DNA from: Escherichia coli
GTDB taxonomy: Bacteria; Pseudomonadota; Gammaproteobacteria; Enterobacterales; Enterobacteriaceae
Length of the DNA: 64,000 nt
Assembly (NCBI RefSeq): GCF_001677475.2
Contig: NZ_CP012498.1
Direction: 5' to 3' (one strand)
The notes beneath the pieces are model-generated. The model was not told the origin of the DNA and searched no databases. It saw only the letters and a program-made list of their open reading frames with translations. Below, piece by piece: positions 11,287 through 13,316 of the stretch (the first letter of the stretch is position 1; every line of letters begins with the position of its first letter). The position numbers were made by a program, and so were the translations under genes.

Positions 11287-11399
11287 AACATACAATAACT
11301 AGATTTGAACAGGTTTTTTATCAGAGGGAACTGCTGCCTATATGTAAAACACATCAGAAAAAAACATCTATTATTCAACAGACTGTATTCTTTGAATGA

Positions 11400-11480
11400 T
11401 AGTGTTTTGTGCATGGCATTCAATCCGGTTTGTTGTTCAAGTGGAAGACACAAGGGCAGGAAAGTAATCTCACAGCTATT
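11400..11480 (+). mobile_element. Short remnant of an IS2-like orfA (IS3 family)
   Basis: Translates to HGIQSGLLFKWKTQGQESNLTA, resembling the IS2-like orfA copy at 40231..40566. Confidence 0.4.
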
Positions 11481-11803
11481 GCCCGATTATTAACAGGACG
11501 TCGCAATAAAGCCAATTTATCTGCTTTAGTGTTTACTAGACATTGAGCTTCAAGGAAGTGATGGAGTATGTGAGCAATTTTATATACTGGCCCCTGAATA
11601 TCCAGACAACCATTATCACTTAAATTAAGTGATAGTCTTAATACTAGTTTTTAAACTAGTCATTGGAGAATGTAATGAACGCATCTCAACTATTTGAGTA
11701 TGAATCCGGGGTTGGCAGGAAAAGTGTGGAGCCTCGCAGATTTCCGGCATCATAGTGCCCAATATGGGATACATAAAGCTCCCTCAGACTGGAGACTCCA
11801 CAA

Positions 11804-12819
11804 ATGAAATATACACCGGTTGGAGTTGATATCGCAAAACATCTGATTCAGGTTCACTTCATCAATGAGCACACAGGGGAAGTGGTGGATAAGCAGGTTC
11901 GTCGTCAGGATTTTCTGGCGTATTTCAGTAACCGCGAACCCTGCCTGATTGGCATGGAAGCCTGTGGAGGCTCTCAGCACTGGGCCCGGGAACTGACAAA
12001 ACTGGGTCATAAAGTCCGGTTGTTGCAGGCCCGCTTCGTTAAGGCATTTGTCATGGGCAATAAGAATGATGTGATGGATGCCAGGGCTATCTGGATAGCA
12101 GTTCAGCAGCCAGGTAAAGAAATCGCCGTCAAAACAGAAGAACAGCAGTCAGTTCTTGTTCTGCACCGGACCCGCAGGCAACTGGTGAAGTTCCGGACCG
12201 CACAAATTAATGCCCTGCACGGGACGTTACTGGAGTTTGGTGAAAGCATTCACAAAGGTCGGGCAGCGATGGAGTGGGAGTTCCCTGAAGCACTGGAGCG
12301 GATGAAAGAGAGACTGCCACCGTATCTCATTACGGTGCTGGAAGACCAGTACAACAGACTGAGTGAGATGGACTCACTGATAGATGATATCGAAAGCTTA
12401 CCAGTGTGGCCAGGCAGAATGAAACCTGTAAGCGGTTGCTGGATATTCCCTGCATTGGACCACTTATTGCGACGGCAGCGGTGGCCACCATGGGGGAAGC
12501 ATCTGCATTTAAATCAGGGCGAGAGTTCGCGGCTTATGTTGGTCTGGTGCCCAGACAGACTGGCTCAGGAGGAAAAATCCGCCTGCTGGGGATAAGTAAA
12601 CGTGGTGATCCCTACCTCCGGACATTGTTTATCCACGGAGCAAGGGCGGCAGCATTACTGACCAGAGAACCAGGCCCGTGGATAACCGAACTGAAAAAAC
12701 GTCGTCCGGCCAGTGTGGCAATCGTCGCCATGGCAAACAAGCTGGCACGAACAGTGTGGGCAATAGCTGCTCACGGACGTAAATACGACAAGAATCACGT
12801 CAGTATCAGACCATATTAA
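11804..12819 (+). mobile_element. IS110-family transposase gene, split into two overlapping frames (11804..12595 and 12406..12819); probably inactivated
   Basis: N-terminal and C-terminal halves are IS110-family-like (compare the intact 350-aa copy at 42096..43148) but need a frameshift to join. Confidence 0.7.
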
Positions 12820-13237
12820 TTGCTGAGACTGATAAACATCAAACCTTAAAAAGGGTGAATGCTGAAAGGTTGCGTGGGCAGCCGTAGTGATGACAACGAC
12901 AGGTAAGACCTGGACTCGCTAAACCTGAATCTGTTCTAGAGATTAAAGCTCGCTGGGAGAATAAGGCGCGAGTCAGCGTATTACATAGGGGCCCTCAGCT
13001 TCACGGCTGCAACAAGATACTGTTACGGTGCAGGATGCTATGTTCTGTGGTGTGAAAATGCTTTGGTGCTAACGGTGCTCTCATCCAGCGCAGAAGATAA
13101 AATACTAGAAAGCTTCGTGGACAATGATGAAGGAAAATATCGTGTTTATTCCAGAAGCAGATGTAAGAACAGCATTGCTCACTCTACAGTGGTTATCGAA
13201 CCTTAATAAGAACCATCTGCATAGTGCACCAGGATCG

Positions 13238-13265
13238 CTCACTGACGCATATCTGCGTCAGTGAG
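13238..13265. repeat. Perfect 12-bp inverted repeat (CTCACTGACGCA / TGCGTCAGTGAG) with a 4-nt loop
   Basis: Read directly from the sequence; about 50 bp upstream of the tssL start, inside the non-coding flank following the IS110-family gene. Confidence 0.6.
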
Positions 13266-13316
13266 TAAAATATCAATTCCAGTTTATCGTTTCCGGGTAC
13301 AAAACATGTTATATGA

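Follow-up and report, generated by a model that had tools for sequence, protein, structure and literature searches.

Insertion sequences (IS) of the IS110 family, including the IS1111 group, pick their targets by means of a guide RNA that is encoded in a non-coding end of the element (PMC11187229, PMC11208160), and it was with ISEc11 that transposition guided by a seekRNA was demonstrated (Siddiquee et al. 2024, PMC11187229). Some members of the family target other mobile elements, as when ISEc21 enters IS3-family transposase genes at the DDE codons and IS4321/IS5075 enter the terminal repeats of Tn21 (PMC11187229, PMC11208160). For IS2, a member of a different family, the position of the promoter PIRL is known from the literature, and this promoter has been documented as weak and as repressed by the IS2 protein OrfA (PMC3299598). 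An IS110 insertion has also been mentioned already in the cluster of type VI secretion system (T6SS) genes of the RM9088 plasmid pEHEC (p1RM9088), a cluster which Carter et al. (2023) assigned to E. coli T6SS-3, the aai type that is also carried on the O104:H4 chromosome (PMC10562709). Here we analyze the interval between tssK and tssL (positions 11287-13316) of a T6SS-3 cluster in a stretch of 64,000 nucleotides of Escherichia coli DNA (contig NZ_CP012498.1 of assembly GCF_001677475.2), which we call the window and whose numbering is used throughout.

Our conclusion, to which we give a probability of roughly 0.8 for the explanation as a whole (the layered history, the targeting by guide RNA and the toleration of the insert), is that the interval consists of three dead IS, one nested in another, in a plasmid-borne E. 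coli T6SS-3 cluster. The initial annotation of this DNA had described about 2 kb of foreign DNA between tssK and tssL-tssM-tssH, and this is borne out by a step in GC content (from about 0.31 in the T6SS genes to 0.49-0.54 over 11750-12800, with 0.53 for 11287-13316), by homology to known IS and by comparison with related clusters, since M1 plasmid A and the SCU-105 and O104:H4 chromosomes are all without 11299-13089. The insert is thus lineage-specific for about 11299-13089, but the last 227 bp (13090-13316) are homologous to the spacer of these insertion-free relatives. The long non-coding flanks that had been reported beside the transposase gene are not anonymous, as they comprise the IS1111-type element's own ends, its guide-RNA gene and two pieces of an ancient IS2-group element. 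The interval divides into four segments:

11299 to 11582, + strand: 5' piece of an ancient IS2-group (IS3 family) element carrying the N-terminal helix-turn-helix region of OrfA, decayed and without its own left inverted repeat.
11583 to 11670, + strand: left end of IS2 (88 bp), comprising its left inverted repeat (IRL), PIRL, which is a weak promoter, and the GGAG that serves insA as ribosome-binding site.
11671 to 13016, + strand: ISEc11-like element of the IS1111 group (IS110 family), of which 1346 of 1428 bp are kept.
13017 to 13320, + strand: 3' piece of the same ancient element, with the C-terminus of orfB and a decayed right inverted repeat.

The IS2-like remnant of the earlier description proved to be the true left end of IS2: over its 88 bp it is 91-92% identical to the start of the IS2 copy that lies in hprS of E. 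coli A37, and it stops exactly at the insertion point of the IS1111-type element. The extended -10 of PIRL (TGATAGTCT) is kept at 11630-11638 and is directed toward tssL. The hprS locus of A37 (NZ_CP195776 1941712-1948158) holds the intact version of this arrangement, in which the IS1111-type element lies within a whole IS2, inserted between GGAGAA and CAGATG, that is, between the insA ribosome-binding site and the start codon. Deleting the 1428-bp element from this locus in silico regenerates native IS2 (GGAGAACAGATG), and there is no target-site duplication.

The element in the window is 92% identical to this intact copy (A37 locus 2596-4023), and the alignment ends at 13016, so that the window copy is without the last 82 bp and with them the right subterminal inverted repeat. 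The same right-end breakpoint is found in the window and in the three sister plasmids compared (p1RM9088, AP025742 and pCFSAN004179G). The parts of the element that bear on its identity and its loss of function are:

11675 to 11686, + strand: left-end subterminal repeat ATGAACGCATCT, kept in the window.
11804 to 12819, + strand: transposase gene in two frames, 11804-12595 and 12406-12819.
12391 to 12398, + strand: 4-bp deletion GAA[AAAC]AGC after 12394, seen in alignment with the intact and sister copies, which splits the transposase.
12820 to 13016, + strand: retained part of the right-end non-coding region, 197 bp.

The intact copy encodes 339 codons with matches to the Pfam families PF01548 DEDD_Tnp_IS110 (DEDD, RuvC-like; E=1e-12) and PF02371 Transposase_20 (IS116/IS110/IS902; E=1.6e-21). 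The NCBIfam model NF033542 ('IS110 family RNA-guided transposase') scores the intact copy at 333 bits and the N-terminal fragment in the window at 172 bits, with a cutoff of 140. These matches confirm the frameshifted IS110-family transposase gene that had been read from the sequence. The 4-bp deletion is the only disabling lesion in the transposase gene of the window copy, and with the four bases put back its product shares 94% identity with the A37 copy and 92% with TnpEc11, whose sequence was taken from the supplement of the ISEc11 paper (PMC11187229). The intact copies carry subterminal inverted repeats (ATGAACGCATCC on the left and GGATGCGTTCAT on the right), and the ends of the intact copy measure 133 bp on the left and 275 bp on the right; a right non-coding end longer than the left, together with subterminal repeats, is the layout of the IS1111 group.

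The right end of the element also accounts for the choice of the site. Within it we recognize the following parts of a predicted seekRNA or bridge RNA:

12913 to 12974, + strand: target-binding stem-loop, with stem arms 12913-12919 and 12968-12974.
12929 to 12937, + strand: 5' target guide AUCUGUUCU, the exact reverse complement of native IS2 AGAACAGAT.
12956 to 12961, + strand: 3' target guide GGAGAA, identical to the left half of the target.
12980 to 13016, + strand: truncated donor-binding loop, in which the 5' donor guide AUUACA (12980-12985) is kept.

In the target loop of the element AUCUG(C/U)UCU follows a conserved CCUGAAU, and GGAGAA precedes a conserved UAAGG. The target site, TGGAGAA^CAGATGA, is 14 nt long and occurs both in the IS2 leader and at the start of an IS66-family tnpC gene. 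One guide would pair with AGAACAGAT on the top strand, and the other, equal to GGAGAA, with the bottom strand. On the donor side AUUACA is the complement of the element's first bases TGTAAT, and the 3' donor guide AUAUAGAG, which in intact copies equals the element's last bases, is deleted from the window. The window copy retains the whole target loop and the first donor guide, but neither the second donor guide nor the right repeat. The intact element also occurs, 99.9% identical, in an IS66-family context between CCTGGAGAA and CAGATGAAG (CP057768 93717-98158), with the same junctions; the copy in CP057768 spans 95224-96651. The live version of the element (CP057768; NZ_CP195776) is seen at the same 14-nt site in two host elements, and its landing sites appear to be other insertion sequences.

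Three paralogues, whose proteins are 92-94% identical, sit at other sites, and in the four variants compared the guide segments change to match:

p1RM9088 paralogue: left target ACGGAGAA and 3' guide ACGGAGAA; right target CTTAT and guide AUAGG, with one G-T wobble; donor guides AUCUCA for TGAGAT, and AUACAG.
ISEc66-family copy: left target ACAGGAAA and 3' guide ACAGGAAA; right target AATTAT and guide AUAAUU; donor guide AUAUAA.
pO104_H21 copy: left target AAGGAGAA and 3' guide AAGGAGAA; right target TGTTAT and guide AUAACA.

Compensatory base-pair changes are found as well, three in the outer stem and two in the apical stem. Two results weigh against the presence of a guide RNA here. A search of 10500-14500 against Rfam at E<=1 found no matching family, and the single-sequence fold of the right end does not differ significantly in stability from folds of shuffled sequence (the intact copy has z = -1.8 and the window fragment +0.47). 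Because the single-sequence fold is not significantly stable, the case for the guide RNA is built on covariation and on homology to ISEc11. On these grounds, and with the mechanism taken from the work on ISEc11 and IS621, it can be shown at the level of sequence that the predicted guide RNA of the right end would have directed the integration. The IS2 end would then adjoin an IS110-family gene because the guides match the TGGAGAA^CAGATGA site in IS2.

The outer segments belong to an older element. In blastn the 5' piece is 68-83% identical to an IS2-group element (L004) over 11335-11477 and 11503-11537; tblastx carries the match out to 11317, and in tblastn residues 23-72 of OrfA match with E=1.6e-10, with stops and a gap. 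This piece is confined to the lineage of the window, where it is found in 9 same-lineage plasmids in PLSDB. In the 3' piece, 13107-13268 is 72.5% identical to the 3' end of the L004 element, and the C-terminus of OrfB (the DDE integrase) matches in tblastn over 13124-13234 with E=8e-6; the homology of 13017-13089 is weak and was read by eye. The OrfA and OrfB matches are both on the + strand and in the expected order, and the inverted repeats are too decayed to score.

The 3' piece has counterparts in clusters that lack the rest of the insert. The spacer between tssK and tssL in the three insertion-free T6SS-3 clusters measures 338-352 bp. Against the spacers of M1 plasmid A and SCU-105 the window segment 13090-13316 shows 75% identity, and against that of O104:H4 the segment 13155-13340 shows 72%. 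Nucleotides 12-293 of the 352-nucleotide spacer of M1 plasmid A in turn align to the 3' end of the IS2-group element at 68.6% (E=7e-20), and the whole spacer of the three clusters is recognized by these alignments as the 3' end of the ancient element. Tight junctions were found only in far more distant clusters with the same gene order, of which there are two: an E. coli IncFIA plasmid with a 34-bp gap between tssK and tssL, where TssL is 42% identical, and Enterobacteriaceae bacterium Kacie_13, where the two genes overlap by 4 bp. An IS-derived spacer in the relatives, with tight junctions only in distant clusters, implies that the operon was broken long before the 2-kb insert arrived. The initial annotation had the insertion splitting the operon; clusters without the insert do exist, as this would require, but those relatives already carry an IS-derived spacer of 338-352 bp. 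Two other readings were tried and given up along the way. The segment 13090-13316 is not a displaced 5' part of tssL, in spite of a DotU listed under the match, because what matches is spacer upstream of the gene, with an overlap of only 4 nt. A plasmid with a 70%-identical tssL (L015) was discarded as a comparison for the junction, its upstream region having been replaced by other DNA.

That the interval might instead be conserved regulatory DNA native to this T6SS type, with no insertion at all, is scarcely credible: 18 complete E. coli genomes do have the same sequence at 94-95% identity, and the T6SS-3 clusters compared have the last 227 bp of the interval in common, but three other T6SS-3 lineages are without 11299-13089, every segment has IS homology, the GC content steps and the distant clusters have a tight tssK-tssL junction, so that the insertion-free relatives and the IS homologies refute it.

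The history that these comparisons show would run as follows. An IS2-group element would have entered an originally tight tssK-tssL junction in the ancestor of the sampled T6SS-3 clusters, of which the three insertion-free relatives would keep only the 3' end of about 300 bp and the window lineage both a 5' and a 3' piece. In the window lineage a genuine IS2 would then have landed within the ancient relic, and the ISEc11-like element would have integrated into the IS2 leader at TGGAGAA^CAGATGA, without target duplication. A single deletion would next have begun inside the right end of the IS1111-type element, spanned what was left of IS2 and ended in the 3' region of the ancient element. With it went the last 82 bp of the IS1111-type element, the other 1.2 kb or so of IS2 and the middle of the ancient element, and as a result all three are immobile. 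Finally, the transposase gene would have decayed separately in the sublineages, in the window through the 4-bp deletion and through gene conversion from the p1RM9088 paralogue.

The last of these steps can be followed among the sister plasmids. The 2-kb insert has the same boundaries in the 18 genomes, always on plasmids, and it also occurs on plasmids of other Escherichia species. The copies of p1RM9088, AP025742 and pCFSAN004179G have in common a 1-bp deletion at position 169 of the coding sequence and are without the window's 4-bp deletion; two of the three carry TAG at codon 228, and one has an IS629-like insertion. An ancestral origin of the window frameshift was rejected, as the sister plasmids bear different lesions. 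It had been proposed from the split transposase that the insertion is old and fixed; fixed it is, in one plasmid T6SS lineage, but the frameshift is private to the window copy and is not evidence of age. In the pCFSAN004179G sublineage (NZ_CP012501 53963-60308, locus 2445-3755) the dead transposase gene has itself received an IS629/IS1203-like element (starting TGAACCGCCCCGG), which makes four nesting layers in pCFSAN004179G and its relatives.

The divergence between the window and its sister plasmids is uneven. It amounts to 6-8% in the IS1111-type segment and to only 0.3-3% in the adjacent relic segments, and the excess differences are clustered in tracts, at roughly 11962-12103 and 12481-12848. 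On p1RM9088 a second IS110-family element, which is intact and lies some 24 kb away, matches the tract that was tested (12470-12860) at 99.7% identity; on the layout of that plasmid this copy would fall outside the window. This pattern indicates that the dead window copy has probably been partly overwritten by gene conversion from a live paralogue. We also observe that the conversion tracts coincide with the absence from the window of the 1-bp deletion of the sister copies.

We turn next to whether the insert affects the expression of tssL-tssM-tssH. If it had silenced or rewired these genes, this would bear on the existence of a working T6SS on these large IncF plasmids of E. coli associated with cattle, birds and food. 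We think it probable that the insert is tolerated and that the downstream genes are still expressed. The three genes (6.55 kb) are open in the window, in p1RM9088 and in AP025742; in pCFSAN004179G tssL is annotated as intact and the part of tssM that was retrieved has no pseudogene flag, tssH lying beyond the fetched stretch. Over the same tree four independent disabling events fell in the 1.02-kb transposase relic, and at that rate about 26 would be expected in tssL-tssM-tssH, where none is seen. That these genes are intact while the relic took four lesions suggests that their expression probably persists, and it points to selection still acting on them. Over the longer term, the comparison of the window with the M1 plasmid gives synonymous divergence (dS) of about 0.35-0.45 for tssL, tssM and tssH, with ratios of nonsynonymous to synonymous divergence (dN/dS) of 0.18-0.32, which indicates that these genes, like all genes of the cluster, have been under purifying selection since the ancient IS insertion in the T6SS-3 lineages sampled. 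A sequence scan predicted no terminator-like site on either strand, and on the + strand G exceeds C across the insert, which would be unfavourable for Rho loading. Transcription of tssL-tssM-tssH would thus probably continue, the likely routes being read-through from upstream, the weak PIRL and/or a promoter in the conserved 100 bp or so that adjoin tssL and are shared by the compared clusters. A promoter contribution from the IS debris is possible.

Several observations count against continued expression and need to be weighed here. Within the insertion-bearing lineage dN/dS for tssL-tssM-tssH is 0.5-0.6 (15 synonymous to 34 nonsynonymous substitutions), and set against the long-term 0.18-0.32 this could mean relaxed selection. 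The upstream genes have 10 to 11, and the difference between the two groups is not significant (Fisher p=0.19), with too few substitutions to decide; an elevated dN/dS at very low divergence is also expected without any relaxation. A promoter scan performed at the level of chance, with 7 found and 5.5 expected. A strong hairpin also stands just before tssL and might impede transcription:

13237 to 13266, + strand: perfect 13-bp hairpin without a U-tract, 75 nt upstream of the tssL GTG; -23.3 kcal/mol, z = -5.4.

This hairpin is present in the window and in p1RM9088, and the equivalent spacer of M1 plasmid A does not fold. The sole promoter-like match on the + strand (13242-13271) overlaps it. 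Additionally, read-through, PIRL activity and a tssL-proximal promoter are all features that we infer from sequence, and the literature on aaiL, aaiM and aaiN yielded no transcript or promoter data.

Of the alternatives to a tolerated insert, the one that survives best, though we consider it unlikely, is that a promoter borne by the IS (PIRL or another in the debris) mainly drives tssL-tssM-tssH, so that they no longer follow the regulator of the genes upstream. Activation of neighbouring genes by promoters within an IS is well documented, and PIRL is retained here and points toward tssL. However, it lies 1.7 kb upstream of tssL, the promoter scan does not rise above chance, and PIRL is weak and would be repressed by OrfA from other IS2 copies (PMC3299598).

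A little less likely again is that the insert is polar, cutting tssL-tssM-tssH off from the operon promoter so that the membrane complex and ClpV are not made and the cluster is non-functional and beginning to decay. Two kilobases of mostly untranslated foreign DNA with a strong hairpin at their end would fit such an effect, as would the within-lineage dN/dS of 0.5-0.6, and there are Mu and IS3 pseudogenes just downstream of tssH in a window that is rich in IS fragments. However, the insertion-bearing sequences examined have no disabling lesion in tssL, tssM or tssH against four in the 1-kb transposase relic, no intrinsic terminator is predicted, and the + strand is rich in G and not in C, which would not favour Rho. 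The older relic of 340 bp at the same place also left purifying selection on these genes in force, and the raised dN/dS is of the kind to be expected at very low divergence without relaxed selection.

Two further readings go beyond the window, and we hold both to be improbable. Across the E. coli T6SS-3 (aai) clade, tssL-tssM-tssH could depend for their expression on a promoter that evolved within the right end of the ancient relic. If this were true, the machine would long have run as two transcription units separated by an IS, and the extra 1.7 kb in the window lineage would change little. The other, which is less likely still, is that the dead element could make a truncated guide RNA from PIRL that acts in trans on, or competes for, the paralogous transposase of p1RM9088, which is 97% identical to the repaired window protein.

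The window is an IS-rich part of a large plasmid of the E. coli type. Over its first 25 kb it shares 99.0% identity with p1RM9088 and 96.7-96.8% with IncFIA/FIB plasmids, which come from E. coli and from other Escherichia species. The gene order is tssB-tssC-(hcp-like)-tssE-like-tssF-tssG-vgrG-DUF6931-PAAR-tssA-tssJ-tssK, then the interval, then tssL (DotU)-tssM-tssH, and from tssK through tssH it agrees with the annotations of the O104:H4 T6SS-3 and of p1RM9088. The genes nearest to the insert are:

9934 to 11286, + strand: tssK, the baseplate subunit gene upstream of the insert (NCBIfam TIGR03353, 249 bits with a cutoff of 100).
13341 to 13931, + strand: tssL (DotU), the first gene 3' of the insert (NCBIfam TIGR03349, 92.9 bits with a cutoff of 89.95).
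13938 to 17342: tssM.
17346 to 19877: tssH/ClpV.

TssK, DotU/TssL and TssH match NCBIfam models above the cutoffs, and the match of TssM is weak and below its cutoff. Two starts can be considered for tssL, the ATG at 13317 and the GTG at 13341; the latter lies 6 nt after GGAGG at 13330-13334, the annotation of p1RM9088 by the Prokaryotic Genome Annotation Pipeline (PGAP) begins the gene at the equivalent GTG, and 13341 is the more likely start. At the other border, the window tssK is 86% identical to that of E. coli M1 plasmid A in an alignment that reaches window position 11298. Homology to the tssK loci of the M1 plasmid and O104:H4 stops 12 nt past the window stop codon (window 11286), and the length of TssK varies by lineage: that of the window has 450-456 aa, that of the M1 plasmid 460 and that of O104:H4 470. 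The ancient IS insertion, or deletions that came after it, may have reshaped the final codons of tssK.

Elsewhere in the cluster, the hcp-like gene after tssC (1837-2343) has dS 0.72 and dN 0.32 in comparison with AP025742, which is otherwise 97% identical. In the same comparison dS is 0.13-0.38 from tssC to tssG (349-5494) and at most 0.03 from DUF6931 to tssH. The cluster is a recombination mosaic that carries a hypervariable Hcp-like gene. Other IS fragments lie in the window at 24919-25432, 40199-40568, 43172-44007, 45712-45787 and 53488-54114, and the fragments found elsewhere in the window include a 3' fragment of IS2 (89%) and several IS2-group pieces of the L004 type (90-97%).

Taken as a whole, this is nested IS debris of known families, which is ordinary and will not surprise a specialist, and the insertion itself is already in print (Carter et al. 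2023). What is added here is the layered structure, the IS origin of the spacer in the T6SS-3 clusters examined, the guide-RNA account of why IS2 and an IS1111-type element adjoin, and the gene-conversion tracts. Its practical use lies mainly in annotation: nested IS relics, and not anonymous spacer, is the label that the 2 kb should carry, and the gap between tssK and tssL in E. coli T6SS-3 clusters should be recognized as derived from an IS. The locus also provides a natural example of RNA-guided IS1111-type elements landing in other IS, of close paralogues retargeted through changes in their guides, and of gene conversion between dead and live IS copies.

The comparison with described systems can be drawn most closely with the insertion of Carter et al. 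(2023) in p1RM9088. The locus is the same, but the window copy has a different lesion and carries conversion tracts, and their account covers neither the nesting and the IS2 end nor the older relic, the truncation and the guide RNA. With respect to IS2, the first 88 bp of the element are alike (91-92%), but the window fragment is without orfA, orfB and the right end. The ancient relic is not part of this IS2; it is a separate, older element of the IS2 group that shares about 70% identity with a modern member.

The nearest named relatives of the IS1111-type element are ISEc66 (about 89% in nucleotides) and ISEc11 (92% in protein). The element resembles ISEc11 in having a DEDD transposase of 339 aa (92% after repair), a length of about 1.43 kb, subterminal repeats and a short left and long right end. 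It also resembles ISEc11 in its predicted guide RNA, with one segment pairing to the top strand and one to the bottom strand, and in the lack of a target duplication. The targets differ, being GTGAAAATACTG in ISEc11 and TGGAGAA^CAGATGA here, and the guides differ accordingly. Unlike ISEc11, the window copy carries a frameshift, is without its last 82 bp, its 3' donor guide and its right repeat, and cannot move. Like ISEc21 and IS4321/IS5075, the element would have entered a conserved sequence of another transposable element in a site-specific manner, which leads to nested IS. However, its site differs from theirs, as it is the IS2 leader, between the insA ribosome-binding site and the start codon, and also the start of an IS66-family tnpC gene. 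ISEc21, moreover, belongs to the IS110 group, with its guide upstream of the transposase gene, whereas the element in the window belongs to the IS1111 group.

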